Positions 6,510 to 52,653 of a DNA stretch of 64,000 nt are shown here, one piece after another (position 1 is the stretch's first letter; each line of letters starts with the position of its first letter). Source of the stretch: SAR202 cluster bacterium. GTDB taxonomy: Bacteria; Chloroflexota; Dehalococcoidia; Lucifugimonadales; UBA6952. A program made the position numbers and the translations under genes. Under the pieces are notes generated by a model. It saw only the letters and a program-made list of their open reading frames with translations, had not been told where the DNA came from and searched no databases. The stretch spans positions 1,633 to 65,632 of the forward strand of contig VFGE01000030.1 in assembly GCA_009392515.1 (NCBI GenBank), given 5' to 3'.

Positions 6510-6626
6510 ATGAAAATAAGAGCTTCTGTAAAAAAAAGATGTGACAAGTGCAAAATAATTAAAAGAAATAATGTTGTACAAGTTATTTGTTCAACAACAC
6601 CTAGGCATAAACAAAAACAAGGTTAA
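6510..6626 (+). CDS. rpmJ: 50S ribosomal protein L36, zinc-binding form (not in ORF track)
   Basis: Manual translation [38 protein letters not shown], with GAGG RBS. Confidence 0.97.
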
Positions 6627-6647
6627 TAAACTTTGTAAGGAGGAAAG

Positions 6648-7028
6648 ATGGCTCGTATAGCTGGTGTAGATATACCTGATAATAAAAGAATAGAATTGGG
6701 ACTTACGATGATTTATGGCATAGGTCCAACAGCTGCTTCCAAAATACTAAAGCAAGTTCGTTTAGAAGGAAATCCCAAGATTGGCGATATTGAAGAATCT
6801 CAACTTCAACAGATTAGAGAAATTGTAGACCAAGATCACACAGTTGAAGGAGATTTACGCCGAGAAGTTAATATGAATATAAGGCGATTGATTGACATTG
6901 GGACTTATCGAGGAGTTCGTCACAGAACTGGTCTTCCAGTGAGAGGACAAAGAACGAAAACAAATGCAAGAGGTCGAAAAGGTGGAAAACGAACTATTGC
7001 AAATAAAAAGAAAGTAATAAAGAAATAG
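6648..7028 (+). CDS. rpsM: 30S ribosomal protein S13
   Basis: [24 protein letters not shown]. Confidence 0.98.
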
Positions 7029-7043
7029 ATATAAGGAGAAATA

Positions 7044-7433
7044 ATGACACAATCTCGTCAGAGGCCTAGAAGAAGAGATAGAAAATCTGTACCAAAAGGT
7101 AATGCTTATATATCCTCAACCTTTAATAATACCATCATTACACTGACTGATTTAGAAGGTAATGCTATAGCATCTGGAAGTGCTGGAATGGTTGGATTTA
7201 AGGGAGCAAGGAAAAGTACTGCATTTGCTGCCCAGAGAGCAGCGGAAGCGGTTGCTAAAAGAGGAATGGAGCATGGTTTAAGAGAAATTGATGTTATGGT
7301 TAAAGGCCCTGGTGCTGGACGAGAAGCTGCAATACGAGCTATACAATCCTCAGGTATAGCTGTGAACAGTATTCGTGATGTTACCCCAGTTCCGCATAAT
7401 GGATGCAGACCTCCAAAAAAGAGGAGAGTATAA
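7044..7433 (+). CDS. rpsK: 30S ribosomal protein S11
   Basis: [27 protein letters not shown]. Confidence 0.98.
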
Positions 7434-8024
7434 ATGGCAAGATATACTGGCCCAAAAAATAAAAAAAATAGAAGATTTGGATTACCTTTAAAAAATGGGA
7501 AACCTGATACCAAGAGGACAGGTACTGGAAGAGGGAGACGTTTATCAGATTATGGACTTCAGTTGAGAGAAAAACAGAAGGCTAAATATCTCTATGGGAT
7601 TTTAGAAAGACAGTTCCGTAATTACTATTTGAAGGCTTCAAATCTTGAAGGTGTTACTGGAGATAGGTTACTTCAACTACTCGAAAATCGCTTGGATAAC
7701 GTTGTGTATAGACTTGGTTTTGCAAAAACAAGACCACAAGCCCGTCAGTACGTTAGCCATGGCCACATTCAAGTAAATTCTAAGAAGGTTAATATCCCTT
7801 CTTATCAACTTAAAACTGGTGATCAAATTACATGGAAAGAAAGTTCTCAATCATCTGACATTGTGAAAAATGCCTCAGATAACGCTGGGTTTGAGTCAGT
7901 AGTCCCTACATGGCTAAATGTCGATTCAAGTCGGCTTTCTGGTGAAGTATTATCCGAGCCAACGCTTAGTGATGTTGAATTAATTATTGATACTAGATTA
8001 ATTGTTGAGTTTTATTCAAGATAA
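7434..8024 (+). CDS. rpsD: 30S ribosomal protein S4
   Basis: MARYTGP, LENRLDNVVYRLG, ARQYVSHGHI. Confidence 0.98.
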   Translation: MARYTGPKNKKNRRFGLPLKNGKPDTKRTGTGRGRRLSDYGLQLREKQKAKYLYGILERQFRNYYLKASNLEGVTGDRLLQLLENRLDNVVYRLGFAKTRPQARQYVSHGHIQVNSKKVNIPSYQLKTGDQITWKESSQSSDIVKNASDNAGFESVVPTWLNVDSSRLSGEVLSEPTLSDVELIIDTRLIVEFYSR

Positions 8025-11071: not shown

Positions 11072-12121
11072 CTATTTCGATTCGGTAATAATAGGATTAT
11101 AGTGAGGGTCTAATTCGTTAGCCATTGCTAAATAATAACTTATATGGTCACCAAGTGTTAATAAAGAAAACAGGTGCGTAAGTTTGTAATTACCAACTCC
11201 ATTTATCTCTCTATACAACAAGTCCTGTTTTTTCAATAAGCTTTTTAGTTGATTAAATTTTTTCTTTACTGATTCAGGATATAAATTTGATGTAAGTAAA
11301 ATAAAAAAGGGATTTGTTTGTTTAAAAACTTTTGATTGATAACCCTCAATAGAATTGTGAAACATTTCCGGTATATTATCTATTACAGCAATTGTTTTAC
11401 TATTTTCGTTTATTTGAGTTCTCCAACGGTTCGCTGTAGATGTAAGAAAATCCCCACTTATAATAATAGGAAGGCAGTTGAGAATTTTAGTACTAATATC
11501 CTTTGCTAGATTTTGCGAAGTTGGAATTCGAATTTGCAAACCATCAATCAAGGTTTCATTTATACTCAAACAGTCATTTATTTCTTCGTGATTAATATCA
11601 ATTAAGTTATTTTTTGAAAAAAAAGCGATAAGAGAACCTAGTACAAAGGATAAGGAGCTTCTTGCTTCGAGAGTGTTAGGTATTTCTATTAAAGGAATTT
11701 TTCGTTGCTTCGCTATATTAGTTAAATCTCCTCCTTGTGAAATGATTACTATACTAGCTTTTTGCTCAATTGAGTCATTAAACATTTTTATTGTTTCTTC
11801 TGTATTTCCTGAGTATGAACAAATAAATACCAAAGATTGCTCATTGATTGACTTAGGTGTATTCCATGTTTTAACTATTTGTGTAGGTAGCTTGAGTTGA
11901 TCTTTGACTAGATCTACAAATACTTCTCCGCCTATTCCTGATCCCCCCATTCCCATAAAGTAAATCGATGTAATATTGGGGTCAATCGCAATATTATTAA
12001 CATTTTTTGTATTAATTCCATCCTGAAATAATTCAGTTGAATTAGTTATTCTTTGGATATATTTTGTGGAATCGTATTTTTTATATATATTAAGCTGATC
12101 TAAATAATCTGAATTTCTCAA
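11072..12121 (-). CDS. Bifunctional phosphoglucose/phosphomannose isomerase (SIS fold, archaeal-type PGI/PMI)
   Basis: GMGGSGIGG, SYSGNTEET, RWRTQINENSK, PEMFHN motifs. Confidence 0.85.
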   Translation of the reverse strand: MRNSDYLDQLNIYKKYDSTKYIQRITNSTELFQDGINTKNVNNIAIDPNITSIYFMGMGGSGIGGEVFVDLVKDQLKLPTQIVKTWNTPKSINEQSLVFICSYSGNTEETIKMFNDSIEQKASIVIISQGGDLTNIAKQRKIPLIEIPNTLEARSSLSFVLGSLIAFFSKNNLIDINHEEINDCLSINETLIDGLQIRIPTSQNLAKDISTKILNCLPIIISGDFLTSTANRWRTQINENSKTIAVIDNIPEMFHNSIEGYQSKVFKQTNPFFILLTSNLYPESVKKKFNQLKSLLKKQDLLYREINGVGNYKLTHLFSLLTLGDHISYYLAMANELDPHYNPIITESK

Positions 12122-47705: not shown

Positions 47706-48497
47706 TTATATTTTGGGAACTCCAAGGTGTAGGGATAAATAGTCCAATAAAGAGGAAAGATTTTCTGGGTTTTTTTCAATACTTAGATTGGTAGTCATTG
47801 GTGTGATAGATATTAGGTCGTTACGAACAGCCCATACATCGGTATGTTCTATTTCATCCCAATCAGGCCTAGTTCTTGTTACCCAATGAAATCTTTGAGT
47901 TCGAAAATCTTCAACATTAATTGAATCAGAATATACTCTATCAGCTAGTGTAGTTTGAGTAATACCTTTTATTTCAGTTGGTTTTTTATTTGGCATGTTG
48001 ATATTTAACAAAGATATATCTTGGTATATTTTTGATTCATATGCTTCAGCCATTAAAGTTGCTACTTTTGCGCCTATATCGAAATTGTCTGGTGTTAAAG
48101 AAGCAATTGAAAGAGCGATGGAGGGGATTTTTCTTACATATCCCTGAAGAGCTGCTCCAATGGTTCCAGAAAAAACCACGTCATCTCCAAAATTACTTCC
48201 ATTATTAATTCCAGAAATAACTAAATCCACCTTTCCGATTATTGTTTCAAGCCCAAGTATTGCAGAATCGGCAGGTGTTCCACTAGTTGCGTAGCAAGGG
48301 AAGTTAATATTAGAATTCGGTAAGTCATTGATACAATTTATAGTTATTGGGCTAAATAGAGAAATAGAGCAACCTGCACCGCTACAGTTTTTATTTGGAG
48401 CTGTTATAGCAATCTCATGGTTTTCAGATAATGTATTTGCAATTGCCCAAATGCCCGGAGCATAAACTCCATCATCATTAGTGAGTAGTATTTTCAT
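47706..48497 (-). CDS. surE: 5'/3'-nucleotidase SurE
   Basis: ILLTNDDG, SGTPAD, SGINNGSN, SGTIGAA. Confidence 0.95.
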   Translation of the reverse strand: MKILLTNDDGVYAPGIWAIANTLSENHEIAITAPNKNCSGAGCSISLFSPITINCINDLPNSNINFPCYATSGTPADSAILGLETIIGKVDLVISGINNGSNFGDDVVFSGTIGAALQGYVRKIPSIALSIASLTPDNFDIGAKVATLMAEAYESKIYQDISLLNINMPNKKPTEIKGITQTTLADRVYSDSINVEDFRTQRFHWVTRTRPDWDEIEHTDVWAVRNDLISITPMTTNLSIEKNPENLSSLLDYLSLHLGVPKI

Positions 48498-48506
48498 AAA
48501 TTTTCC

Positions 48507-49337
48507 TTAAAATGTTAGATTATCGATAAGCCTTGTTTTTCCTATACAAACTGAAATTAGTATAATTGATGACGGTGAGACCAAATCTACCGGCTCAAAT
48601 GTAACTTTATCACGAATACTAATATATTCAATTCTTATTAAAGATTCTTTTTCAAGATAGTTTTTAATAGATATAATAATATTACTTGCAAGTGTTTCAC
48701 CCTCTAAGTATAAACGTTTACCATATTTTAATGAAGAATATATTTTATTAGCCGCATTTTTTTCTTTTATATTTAAATAGACATTTCTACTACTTAAAGC
48801 TAGCCCATCATTTTCACGTACTGTTGGAATAGCTATAATTTTTGATCCGTGATTTAAATCATTATTTAGTCGATCAATTATCAAGTACTGTTGAAAATCT
48901 TTTTGCCCAAAGTAGGCGTTATTTGGTTTTGTTATATTAAGCAATTTTGAAACGACTGTTGATACTCCTCTAAAATGACTAGGTCTCTTTTCACCTTCTA
49001 GAACAGAACTTAATTGATCATTAATTACAATAGTTTGAAACTCTTTGGGATACATTGTAGACGCATCTGGTGCAAATAATATATCAATTTCTAGATCTGA
49101 AAGTATTTTTTTATCTCTTTGAAAATTTCTAGGATATGTATTAAAGTCCTCATTTTGGCCAAATTGTGTTGGATTAACAAATAGTGTGACTATTGTGGTT
49201 GTATTTTGTTTTTTTGATTCATTGATTAATTTGATATGACCTTCATGTATAGAACCCATGGTTGGCACTAGACCAATAGGTCTTTGAACACTATTGCATA
49301 TTCTTTGCATCAATGGTATGGATTTTATTATTTTCAT
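48507..49337 (-). CDS. panC: Pantoate--beta-alanine ligase
   Basis: VPTMGSIHEGH, FVNPTQF, RPSHFRGV, FGQKDFQQ, GLALSSRN, RLIDN. Confidence 0.96.
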   Translation of the reverse strand: MKIIKSIPLMQRICNSVQRPIGLVPTMGSIHEGHIKLINESKKQNTTTIVTLFVNPTQFGQNEDFNTYPRNFQRDKKILSDLEIDILFAPDASTMYPKEFQTIVINDQLSSVLEGEKRPSHFRGVSTVVSKLLNITKPNNAYFGQKDFQQYLIIDRLNNDLNHGSKIIAIPTVRENDGLALSSRNVYLNIKEKNAANKIYSSLKYGKRLYLEGETLASNIIISIKNYLEKESLIRIEYISIRDKVTFEPVDLVSPSSIILISVCIGKTRLIDNLTF

Positions 49338-49415
49338 GAGTTTATAAGAAACTTTTCTAGATGATTTTAGCTACTTATTCTTTGTGAATAGATCGATCAC
49401 ATTTTTGTTGGATAA

Positions 49416-50420
49416 CTATTTCTGGTCTTTCGATAATTGTATTTCATTACAACTGGGTACTCCGCCTAGTGATGAAGCAATTCTAGTACCTCTGATAATT
49501 GCTTCAGACATTACCATAGGTGCTAGAGCATATATGGATGTAAGTGTTGATCTATCGATATTTTGAGAAGATTCCCAGGTAGATATTGAGAAAACCACAT
49601 CACCATCTCCTGGCATATGGCAGGGTTGTATTGTCATTGCAAACCCATCTTGCCCTCTCTCGGCTAGTTTGTTTGTTTGAGACTTATCCAAGCATAAATT
49701 TGTTGCCACAATACCTAATGTTGTATTTTCTCTAATATTTTGATCCTCATTATTAGATGATTGGGATGAATTCAGCAAAGAGTTCATATAGGTATCGAAT
49801 GTTTTATTTTTTCTATCATATGGTTTTGATACATAGGTACCGGTTTTAGGGTCTACTATATCACCAGCGGCATTAACTGCAGCAATTGCTCCAATTTGTA
49901 TGCCATTATCCAAGGTTATACAATAACTACCGATACCACCTTTTAGGCATCTATCCCAACCTAGCATTTTAGATACCGTAGCACCTGTTGCGGCGCCTAC
50001 GCTACCTTCATCAAATTCAATAGATGCATTTTTTGCTGCTGTGTAGCCTTCAGTTATACTTGGGCTAAAATCATTACTTAATAAGTTTAAATCAAATAAA
50101 ATAGCACTAGGTACAATTGGTATGACATTTGTTCCAATGTTATATCCAACGTTCTTTTCTACAAGATATCTCATTACACCACCTGCTGTATCTAGACCAA
50201 ACGCACTTCCGCCACTTAGAGATATTCCATGGATTTTTTCAACCAATTGACCCGATTTTAATAAATCAGTTTCTCTTGTTCCAGGTGCAGTTCCTCTAAC
50301 ATCTACACCACCTGTGGCTCCGTTTTCACAAAGAAGTACAGTACAACCAGTGCCTTTTTCTTTATTAGTATAATGACCTACGGTTATTCCCTTAATATCT
50401 GTTATTTTTCCTATTTTCAT
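49416..50420 (-). CDS. P1/DmpA-family autoproteolytic Ntn hydrolase (ThnT/NylC-like Asn-Thr site)
   Basis: ITDIKGITVGH, GVDVRGTAPGTRE, GGSAFGL, ENTTLGIVATN, DGDVVF. Confidence 0.88.
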   Translation of the reverse strand: MKIGKITDIKGITVGHYTNKEKGTGCTVLLCENGATGGVDVRGTAPGTRETDLLKSGQLVEKIHGISLSGGSAFGLDTAGGVMRYLVEKNVGYNIGTNVIPIVPSAILFDLNLLSNDFSPSITEGYTAAKNASIEFDEGSVGAATGATVSKMLGWDRCLKGGIGSYCITLDNGIQIGAIAAVNAAGDIVDPKTGTYVSKPYDRKNKTFDTYMNSLLNSSQSSNNEDQNIRENTTLGIVATNLCLDKSQTNKLAERGQDGFAMTIQPCHMPGDGDVVFSISTWESSQNIDRSTLTSIYALAPMVMSEAIIRGTRIASSLGGVPSCNEIQLSKDQK

Positions 50421-50443
50421 TTATATTCATTTCTCATTTAAAT

Positions 50444-50466
50444 AAAAAAACGACTCCTAAAAGTCG
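50444..50466 (-). terminator. Intrinsic terminator about 23 nt upstream of the P1 hydrolase start
   Basis: Minus strand CGACUU-UUAG-GAGUCG followed by U7. Confidence 0.75.
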
Positions 50467-50562
50467 CTGGGATGTTCATATTTTACTTGTCTAGGTCATT
50501 AACGATCCCAGCAGTAGTTATCAATTTAAAACAATCTTCGCTCATCCCAGATGTGGACTGCC
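50444..50562 (-). ncRNA. Candidate structured leader/attenuator RNA (about 120 nt)
   Basis: Promoter upstream, two alternative CUGGGAU strands for one AUCCCAG strand, terminator at the 3' end; no recognised Rfam class. Confidence 0.5.
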
Positions 50563-50567
50563 AGTAG

Positions 50568-50596
50568 ATACTATCAATCATTACATCTTTGGTCAA
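50568..50596 (-). promoter_or_regulatory. Sigma70 promoter of the leader and P1 hydrolase block
   Basis: Minus strand TTGACC-N17-TAGTAT. Confidence 0.6.
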
Positions 50597-50712
50597 ATAT
50601 TAATAAATCTTATATACGATATAAAAAACTGACTATTACGGAATTCGAAATTGTAGTAATATACACAATATTAATGTTCTTGAAATACTTTGAAATACTA
50701 AGGATAGTAGTT

Positions 50713-51864
50713 GTGTCGGATAATTTTGGGCAATCGAGTCAATTTAAAACTATAAGTCATGCTTATGGGTTTGAAGATGTCGGAATTGTGCCAGGTGAGA
50801 TTACAATTAATCCAGACCAAACCGATTTAAGCGTTTATATTGGAGAATACAAACTCGATATTCCTGTGTTAGCTTCTGCTATGGATGCCGTTATGTCTCC
50901 CGAATATGCTATATTAATGAGCCAAATGGGCGGACTTGGGGTTTTAAACCTTGAGGGTATTTATTCACGATATGAAGACTACCATGAGATAATTGATAGA
51001 ATTGTCAATTCTGATGCTACACAGGCTACTAATTTGATGCAAGAAATATATGCACAACCTATTCGAGAAGAATTGATTGCTGTAAGAATCAAACAAATTA
51101 AAGACCAAGGTGCAATTTGTGCAGTATCATTTACCCCGCAAAATGCTAAAAGACTAGCCCCAGTTGCAGTTGATGCTGGAGCTGATTTAGTTGTGATACA
51201 AGCAACGGTGACAACAGCAAGGCATCTTTCAAAAAGTAATGTGGGATTAAATTTCGATACGTTAAAAGAAATTGTCAAAGTACCTTTATTAGTTGGTAAT
51301 TGTGCATCATTTGGTGCTGCTAAAGAACTTATGAATTGTGGTATTGATGGTTTATTAGTGGGTGTAGGCCCAGGAGCTGCTTGTACAACAAGAGAAGTAG
51401 TTGGAGTTGGTGTGCCACAAGTAACAGCAACTATGGAATGTGCTGCTGCAAGAGAGCAGTATTATAATGATTCTGGAAAATATGTACCAATATTCACAGA
51501 TGGAGGTATCAGAACAGGTGGTGATTTGTGTAAATCAATTGCCTCTGGTGCTGATGGAGTAATGATCGGTACCCCTTTTGCTCAAACTGAAGAAGCAATT
51601 GGTAGAGGTTTCAATTGGGGAATGGCTACTCCTCATCCAGCCTTACCTAGGGGTATTAGAATAAATGCAGGAGTGAAAGGTTCTATAAAACAACTTTTAT
51701 ACGGACCATCAAGTCGCACAGATGGGACTCAAAATCTCATTGGGGCTTTAGAGGTAGGAATGGGAATGTGTGGTGCATATAATATCAAAGAAATGCAACA
51801 GGCAGATTTAGTTATAGCACCTTCCATACGTACAGAGGGGAAAATATTTCAGCACTCAATCTGA
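50713..51864 (+). CDS. guaB3: GuaB3-type IMP dehydrogenase (no CBS domains); start reassigned to GTG 50713
   Basis: AYGFEDVGIVPG, ASAMDAV, GVGPGAACTTR catalytic Cys, DGGIRTGGD. Confidence 0.9.
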   Translation: MSDNFGQSSQFKTISHAYGFEDVGIVPGEITINPDQTDLSVYIGEYKLDIPVLASAMDAVMSPEYAILMSQMGGLGVLNLEGIYSRYEDYHEIIDRIVNSDATQATNLMQEIYAQPIREELIAVRIKQIKDQGAICAVSFTPQNAKRLAPVAVDAGADLVVIQATVTTARHLSKSNVGLNFDTLKEIVKVPLLVGNCASFGAAKELMNCGIDGLLVGVGPGAACTTREVVGVGVPQVTATMECAAAREQYYNDSGKYVPIFTDGGIRTGGDLCKSIASGADGVMIGTPFAQTEEAIGRGFNWGMATPHPALPRGIRINAGVKGSIKQLLYGPSSRTDGTQNLIGALEVGMGMCGAYNIKEMQQADLVIAPSIRTEGKIFQHSI

Positions 51865-52653
51865 TATTATATTTTTGGTACTTTTTGATTTTTCCCAAAG
51901 ATTTTCTTTCTCTTCAAAAGATAATTCATTAAATTTTGTTTCTGTTCTAGTGCAATAATTTTCAATTCGTTTAAATCTTGTAATAAATTTTGACGTACTT
52001 TCTTGTAAAGCTATTTCAGAATCTATATCGATCCATCTAGCGAAATTGACCAAAGTAAAAAATATATCCCCAAGTTCTTCTTGTTTGGATGTTTTTGTAT
52101 CAGCTTTTTTGTATTCCAATATTTCTTCTTGCAATTTTTCCATTACACCATCTATATCTTTCCAATCAAGGCCATAGGAAGCAGCTTTTCTCTGAATTTT
52201 GGTGGCATACATTAAGCCAGGTAAATTGGGGGTAACTGAATCTAAAGCAGAAGTTAAGCCTTTTGAATATAAACTTTGTTTTTTTATTTCTTCCCATTGG
52301 GACACAACTTCATTTGATGATAGTGTGGTTTTTATGCTAAATATATGTGGATGACGATCTATGAGTTTTTTTTGTAAATTATAAATAACATCATTTATAG
52401 TAAATTGGTTATTTTTTTCTGCAATATCTGAATGAAAAAGGATTTGAAGTAAAACATCTCCTAGCTCTTCTAATAAATTTTGTTGATCATTTTTATCAAT
52501 AGCATTAAGTGTTTCATATGATTCTTCAATTAAATTAGATTTCAAACTTTCATGTGTTTGTTCTTTATCCCAAGGGCAACCATCAGGTCCTCTGAGCATT
52601 TGTATTAATTTGATTAGATCTGAAAATTGTTCGGTTGGATTTATATTTATCAT
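51856..52653 (-). CDS. mazG: Nucleoside triphosphate pyrophosphohydrolase MazG
   Basis: GCPWDKEQT, EELGDVLLQ, RHPHIF, second EELGDIFF. Confidence 0.95.
   Translation of the reverse strand: MININPTEQFSDLIKLIQMLRGPDGCPWDKEQTHESLKSNLIEESYETLNAIDKNDQQNLLEELGDVLLQILFHSDIAEKNNQFTINDVIYNLQKKLIDRHPHIFSIKTTLSSNEVVSQWEEIKKQSLYSKGLTSALDSVTPNLPGLMYATKIQRKAASYGLDWKDIDGVMEKLQEEILEYKKADTKTSKQEELGDIFFTLVNFARWIDIDSEIALQESTSKFITRFKRIENYCTRTETKFNELSFEEKENLWEKSKSTKNIISD

Follow-up and report, generated by a model that had tools for sequence, protein, structure and literature searches.

A ThnT-like amidase at the head of a pantothenate operon in a SAR202 cluster bacterium: a probable enzyme of vitamin B5 salvage

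ThnT of Streptomyces cattleya, which acts in thienamycin biosynthesis, has an Asn-Thr self-cleavage site and a threonine nucleophile and splits pantetheine into pantothenate and cysteamine. To our knowledge it is known only from this antibiotic pathway, where its partners are presumably Nudix and phosphatase enzymes. Here we describe a ThnT-like protein encoded in a 64,000-nucleotide (nt) stretch of DNA from a SAR202 cluster bacterium of the class Dehalococcoidia (contig VFGE01000030.1). We call this whole stretch the window, and the coordinates of the locus refer to it. The gene, for which we use the family name S58, lies next to panC, the gene for pantoate-beta-alanine ligase. The substrate of ThnT belongs to the very pathway to which S58 is linked, that of pantothenate (vitamin B5). 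ThnT serves an antibiotic cluster by releasing cysteamine, whereas the S58 protein belongs to a primary-metabolism pan operon with a putative pan RNA leader and would release pantothenate. We suggest that it is probably a B5-salvage enzyme.

Other described systems can be compared with it as well. NylC and Nyl50 are defined by their activity on a man-made polymer, and nothing shows the SAR202 protein meeting nylon. DmpA and BapA belong to the Pfam family of the S58 protein and share its DOM fold; their nucleophile is serine, and they require an N-terminal beta-amino group that is free. The pantetheinases of animals, the vanins, carry out the reaction that we propose for S58, with the same role in recycling B5, but they are members of the nitrilase superfamily with an unrelated fold and are extracellular. 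In a 2025 review of coenzyme A (CoA) metabolism in bacteria, pantetheinases are mentioned as host enzymes only (PMC12570885), and our search of the literature for a link of S58 or ThnT to panC, or for a pantetheinase of bacteria, gave no relevant result. The pan RNA motif (RF01749) was originally described as controlling panB, panC and the gene for aspartate decarboxylase (Weinberg et al. 2010, PMC2864571). In its published operons a hairpin leader and then a terminator come before pantothenate genes, in Chloroflexota as well as in Bacillota. The arrangement predicted here is the same, but that description mentions neither a PanT-like transporter nor an S58 hydrolase among the controlled genes.

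The amidase and the genes beside it

The S58 gene occupies positions 49416-50420 on the minus strand and encodes 334 amino acids (aa). The locus was read from open reading frames (ORFs), Pfam (PF) profiles and TIGR equivalog models. PF03576 matches the protein with an E of 6e-44 and 151 bits against a cut-off of 23.9, and the match is near full length, covering profile positions 2-301 of 307. The protein has no signal peptide, so it is predicted to be cytoplasmic. In its motif ENTTLGIVATN, N232 and T233 fall in the alignment columns of the N and T at which ThnT (PDB 3S3U, 3TM1) cleaves itself, and they also align with the N/T site of Nyl50 (PDB 9CXR). The predicted cleavage between the two residues corresponds to codons 49722-49727. 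Among 15 orthologs, T233, K160, N183 and D272-G-D274 do not vary, and core motifs are shared with ThnT. A sequence search of the PDB gave Nyl50 as the best match (5e-51), then ThnT (2e-45) and NylC (1e-22); DmpA and BapA were absent from the matches at E 1e-3.

The structure predicted by AlphaFold (AF2; local confidence score pLDDT 74.6, global score pTM 0.83) agrees with this placement. All of the top 50 PDB structure matches of the model are S58/P1 proteins of the DOM fold. ThnT stands at the top (E 1.5e-25, template-modelling (TM) score 0.76, 33-34% identity), followed by Nyl50, which has the same fold (TM 0.78/0.85) and a threonine nucleophile, and by NylC. Structural alignment with DmpA and BapA (PDB 1B65, 3N2W) gives only 16-18% identity. 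We rejected the identity of a beta-aminopeptidase of the BapA/DmpA kind on three grounds: the threonine nucleophile, the lack of a sequence match at the threshold given above and this low identity. One difference from ThnT is that its N-terminal extension of about 50 residues is missing here. As judged from alignment and model, the protein is a predicted N-terminal-nucleophile amidase of the ThnT/NylC branch with a threonine nucleophile, far from DmpA and BapA. An earlier note, made from the bare sequence, had pointed to the Asn-Thr autoproteolysis site and called the hydrolase ThnT-like, and both statements hold.

Two further genes of the minus strand complete the locus: panC (48507-49337; 276 aa; TIGR00018, 309.7 bits against a cut-off of 212.75) and surE, encoding a 5'/3'-nucleotidase (47706-48497; 263 aa; TIGR00087, 180.3 bits against a cut-off of 135.1). 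The ORFs agree with the three co-oriented genes of the earlier note and with its spacing of 9 nt between panC and surE; S58 and panC are 78 nt apart. PanC is intact, with its HxGH and SSRN motifs, and SurE carries the N-terminal DDG motif. Each of the three genes has a single copy in a search of the whole focal genome. The ratio of nonsynonymous to synonymous substitution rates (dN/dS) between the focal genome (G000) and a genome of the same genus (G002) is 0.08 for S58, 0.23 for panC and 0.04 for surE, and all three genes are still under purifying selection, S58 strongly. Relaxed selection on panC following the loss of panB was considered and rejected, as dN/dS between two panB-bearing genomes is 0.21, compared with 0.23 here.

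The absence of panB, panD and panE from the neighbourhood, also remarked on in the earlier note, extends in the case of panB and panD to the whole genome. Neither gene has a match anywhere in the focal genome (1.55 Mb, about 33% GC, 98.45% complete), and reductases of the ApbA/PanE family are present on other contigs. When the whole genome was searched, no DUF2520 reductase (PanG type), no type I pantothenate kinase (PanK; CoaA) and no group II pyridoxal phosphate (PLP) decarboxylase were found. The only PanK found is the type III enzyme CoaX, whose gene lies side by side with that for CoaBC on another contig. PanC must here depend on scavenged pantoate or ketopantoate, plus beta-alanine.

The operon and its RNA leader in other genomes

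We searched 40 relatives, three of the same genus and 37 from other families of the order, which makes 41 genomes with the focal one. S58 is present in 23 of these. In 17 of the 20 loci fetched, panC lies on the same strand 1-5 kb downstream of S58, often with surE next, and the linkage of S58 to pan genes recurs in 15 further loci from Dehalococcoidia. The synteny that the earlier note had seen at one locus is conserved across the class. The genes found between S58 and panC in relatives are those for a Rossmann-like/DUF2520 oxidoreductase and for PanB. At four loci (L023, L026, L027, L037) the oxidoreductase matches both PF10727 and PF10728 (Rossmann-like domain and DUF2520), which makes it one of the PanG type. 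A statement in PMC4572677, citing Miller et al. 2013, identifies DUF2520 proteins as this type of ketopantoate reductase. Since panG and panB lie between S58 and panC in relatives, the ancestral operon of Dehalococcoidia is a pan RNA motif followed by S58-panG-(panD)-panB-panC-(surE). At L023 a DUF6504 gene (122 aa; 11743-12111) is inserted between panC and surE.

The focal operon is a reduced form of this arrangement. Compared with the operon of the wider order, panG is absent throughout the genus, and two genomes of the genus, one of them represented by locus L021, have S58-panB-panC-surE. When the focal gap of 78 nt (49338-49415, minus strand) is aligned to L021, homology runs up to the end of S58 and resumes at the last 20 or so nt of panB, which remain, stop codon included, before panC. 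The gap is therefore a scar, left when about 780 nt were lost with the deletion of panB, and no terminator-like site lies in it. The earlier note gave the size of the gap correctly and thought it made co-transcription less certain. In the third genome of the genus, which is 88% complete, neither S58 nor panC was found. Two genomes of the order show losses of another kind, with S58 intact, panC lost genome-wide and no panB at the locus: G014 (L037) has S58-panG-surE and G033 (L030) has S58-surE. They look like stages in a stepwise decay of B5 synthesis during which the hydrolase was retained.

Upstream of S58 the minus strand carries a leader. It is preceded at 50568-50596 by a promoter-like site (TTGACC, 17 nt, TG-TAGTAT), a pattern match from a consensus scan in a region where such sites are no more numerous than in shuffles. 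A diverged pan RNA motif follows at 50483-50562 (21.3 bits, E 0.18, gathering score 36.2). Between it and the start of S58, at 50440-50468, there is a terminator-like hairpin, a putative attenuator with an 8-bp stem and a T run, which was found by a pattern scan and is also given by folding. The motif escaped an Rfam search at E<=1 that covered 4.5 kb around the focal genes, and a gathering-level Rfam search of the relatives' 4-kb loci gave no pan motif. It was recovered by a narrow Rfam search, by a whole-genome search with RF01749 and in longer loci. In four genomes (G000, G001, G002 and G007, the last with 32 bits) the best match genome-wide lies directly upstream of S58, within about 150 nt. 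Above-threshold motifs precede S58-panG-panD-panB-panC in two loci from metagenome-assembled genomes of Dehalococcoidia, L043 (45.8 bits) and L046 (43.6 bits). In G018, which has no S58, a match of 36.4 bits lies upstream of panB-panC. Because pan-motif matches directly precede it in the focal and related genomes, S58 is probably the first gene of an operon controlled by the pan motif.

Similar contexts occur beyond Dehalococcoidia. Scanning the species genomes of GTDB gave 80 loci from many phyla, with orthologs at 41-49% identity. In Vicinamibacterales the order panB-panC-S58 is found (L081). In Anaerolineales S58 follows coaBC (L055, L071) or stands at the end of panB..panC-panD-coaX-coaBC-S58 (L091). 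In seven loci of Bacillota S58 adjoins, on the same strand, a gene for the S component of an energy-coupling factor (ECF) transporter (PF12822). The only significant PDB matches of this S component are 4RFS (E 1.2e-17) and 6ZG3, both of them ECF-PanT structures (PMC11521937). The seven PanT-like proteins (L066 5365-5946, L105 5340-5927, L093 3229-3753 and four more) are 46-61% identical among themselves, and no NCBIfam model matches them above its cut-off. At L066 the PanT-like gene has an above-threshold pan motif immediately in front of it and S58 behind it in the same operon; at L121 such a motif precedes the PanT-like gene and S58 lies upstream of the motif; at L101 a motif of 28.7 bits stands in front of the PanT-like gene. 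At L093 the gene order is S58, PanT-like, CoaX. Five loci of Acidobacteriota and Gemmatimonadota have an SSF symporter adjoining S58. PanF is its best or near-best hit among specific models, a hint only, as the scores, 86-116 bits, come nowhere near the cut-off of 328. Relatives of S58 in four bacterial groups adjoin B5/CoA genes, transporters or the pan motif. The tie of the hydrolase to pantothenate and CoA metabolism, proposed in the earlier note, has gained the support of linkage conserved across order and class and of the RNA motifs. At L119, L110 and L079, loci unlinked to pan genes, S58 adjoins an M20 peptidase gene.

We mention the other neighbours for completeness. A gene of the IMP dehydrogenase (IMPDH)/GMP-reductase family (PF00478) lies upstream of the pan operon in divergent orientation (50551-51864, plus strand), as it does at L021 of the same genus (6570-7724). 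Six relatives without S58 (L122-L124, L126, L129, L130) have at the same divergent position an ORF of 459-473 aa, similar in size and unscanned as to family. Beyond the IMPDH-like gene there is a gene for a MazG nucleotide pyrophosphohydrolase (51856-52653, minus strand), which nothing ties to the pan unit.

Which bond might be cut?

An operon and a leader devoted to pantothenate supply are in keeping with a salvage enzyme whose product is pantothenate, and so is the retention of S58 after the loss of panC. Going further, we consider that S58 may be a cytoplasmic pantetheine-type amidase yielding pantothenate for CoaX, a reading we hold in even balance, its substrate being suggested by homology and context. 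It would work as follows. Co-expressed as a member of the pantothenate regulon (promoter, pan RNA motif, attenuator hairpin, head of the operon), the protein would activate itself by cleavage between N232 and T233. It would then hydrolyse pantetheine that has been taken up, or a pantothenoyl amide close to it, giving pantothenate and cysteamine, and the pantothenate would pass to CoaX, a kinase that does not phosphorylate pantetheine itself. PanC, still functional, would ligate scavenged pantoate, or ketopantoate reduced by an enzyme of the ApbA family, with beta-alanine. The focal genome has lost panG and has also deleted panB, the latter leaving the 78-nt scar. Several observations speak for pantetheine. 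The closest characterised enzyme, ThnT, carries out this reaction. Pantothenate is the substrate of CoaX, whose gene adjoins at L091 and L093. The focal genome is CoaX-only, as are four of the five Bacillota genomes in which S58 is paired with the PanT-like gene, and growth of B. subtilis on pantethine is supported by CoaA only, not by CoaX (PMC11487621, section 8). In the Bacillota loci the PanT-like S component could transport pantetheine-type compounds, not pantothenate.

Against this stand several facts that we do not wish to play down. The basis for the substrate is 33-34% identity to ThnT and gene context. Among proteins of solved structure, the one closest in sequence is a nylonase, an enzyme without an established natural substrate. 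The focal pan motif scores below the Rfam gathering threshold. A search of the focal genome found neither a PanT-like transporter nor an S58-linked SSF transporter through which pantetheine might enter. About half of the 101 S58 loci have no B5/CoA neighbour. In a tree of the 101 S58 sequences the pan-linked proteins of Dehalococcoidia fall into a single clade (34 of its 37 rows are linked), so their linkage is largely one inherited arrangement, not many independent events. Finally, panC retained without panB or panD would fit a supply of beta-alanine about equally well in this genome.

It is to this last point that the earlier note had attached one of its proposals, namely that the hydrolase supplies PanC with beta-alanine and so replaces PanD. 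It would free the beta-alanine from beta-alanyl amides or peptides, in the manner of BapA, DmpA or BapF. The focal genome, with panC and neither panD nor a group II PLP decarboxylase, would suit such a role, S58 is probably co-regulated with panC, and the S58 family does include enzymes that release beta-alanine. However, the distribution of the genes is not complementary. Of the 41 genomes, 34 have panC and five have panD, and all five of the latter carry S58; 13 genomes of the order have panC with neither. Moreover, panD lies inside S58-headed operons at L043, L046, L067, L089, L095 and L029 (genome G022), while S58 is kept without panC in at least three genomes (G014, assembled as a single contig, G033 and Clostridium mobile). 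Relatives lacking S58 keep panG-panB-panC(-surE), and no replacement gene was found in the position of S58 when one was sought there. In 11 of the 13 genomes with panC but neither panD nor S58 (e.g. G006, G010, G017-G019) panB stands beside panC, mostly as panG-panB-panC. Hence S58 is not a PanD substitute, and since those 13 genomes exist the order must have another source of beta-alanine. The threonine nucleophile, the clustering with ThnT and NylC away from DmpA/BapA, and the PanT-like, CoaX and CoaBC neighbours, which point to pantothenate itself, likewise make a beta-alanine-releasing hydrolase improbable. A related possibility, unlikely but deserving more attention, is that S58 acts on some other bond of a pantothenate-related compound. 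It could be the orphan pantothenase, which splits pantothenate into pantoate and beta-alanine, or an amidase acting on phosphopantetheine or pantothenoylcysteine, or one that repairs or detoxifies wrong PanC products or antivitamins of the pantothenamide type. The context evidence serves these as well as it serves pantetheine, since context tells which pathway is concerned but not which bond is cut. No protein has yet been assigned to pantothenase activity, and in many bacteria pantothenate is broken down before it is used (PMC10393543). Yet a pantothenase co-expressed with biosynthetic genes under one leader would run a futile cycle, and in carriers without panC it would be harmful. As for the remaining substrates, nothing specific favours them over pantetheine, the substrate of the closest characterised homolog.

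The other proposal of the earlier note was that SurE dephosphorylates 4'-phosphopantetheine and that S58 then cleaves the resulting pantetheine, so that CoA is recycled. The 9-nt gap between panC and surE and the presence of surE after panC in many Dehalococcoidia lend this some appeal, and the two proteins could be taken for a counterpart of what we assume to be a ThnH/ThnT pair. We nevertheless think it very improbable. Intracellular 4'-phosphopantetheine re-enters CoA synthesis directly via CoaD, so degrading it gains nothing. Being the sole copy in the genome, staying beside panC in relatives without S58 and being absent from S58 loci outside Dehalococcoidia, surE is linked by synteny only; we read SurE as a housekeeping nucleotidase carried along by old synteny, and find no specific support for a part in pantothenate salvage. 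That S58 is an ordinary peptidase or amidase which sits beside pan genes by inherited chance is hardly credible to us. The single clade of Dehalococcoidia, the many loci without a B5-related neighbour and the M20 peptidase gene near three of them would be expected under chance, but four or more distinct B5/CoA contexts, spread over different groups, would not, nor would pan motifs in two phyla and a best genome-wide pan match close to S58 in four genomes.

Consequences for vitamin B5 metabolism

If a pantetheine-type amidase is what S58 encodes, its significance would go beyond one genome. We propose tentatively, and with slightly more doubt than confidence, that the S58 clade comprises an undescribed bacterial pantetheinase of primary metabolism serving CoaX-only bacteria, co-regulated by the pan motif and often paired with a PanT-like transporter, and that its activity is ancestral to those of ThnT and of the "nylonases". 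If this is true, a missing salvage route would be added to the map of the CoA pathway, as CoaX-only bacteria are considered incapable of using pantetheine. With a pantetheinase in the cytoplasm, B5 auxotrophy and cross-feeding would also have to be predicted differently for oceans, soils and guts. For the group of ThnT, NylC and Nyl50, now engineered for nylon recycling, it would offer a natural function, and the B5 context may hint at their role. The link to S58 would also enlarge the set of genes under the pan RNA motif, an orphan motif, and suggests new candidates for its ligand. In the focal genome itself we see how B5 synthesis has decayed step by step in a marine genus of Dehalococcoidia with streamlined genomes, with panG absent genus-wide, panB deleted here and the hydrolase strongly selected; the sister genome with neither S58 nor panC fits the same series.

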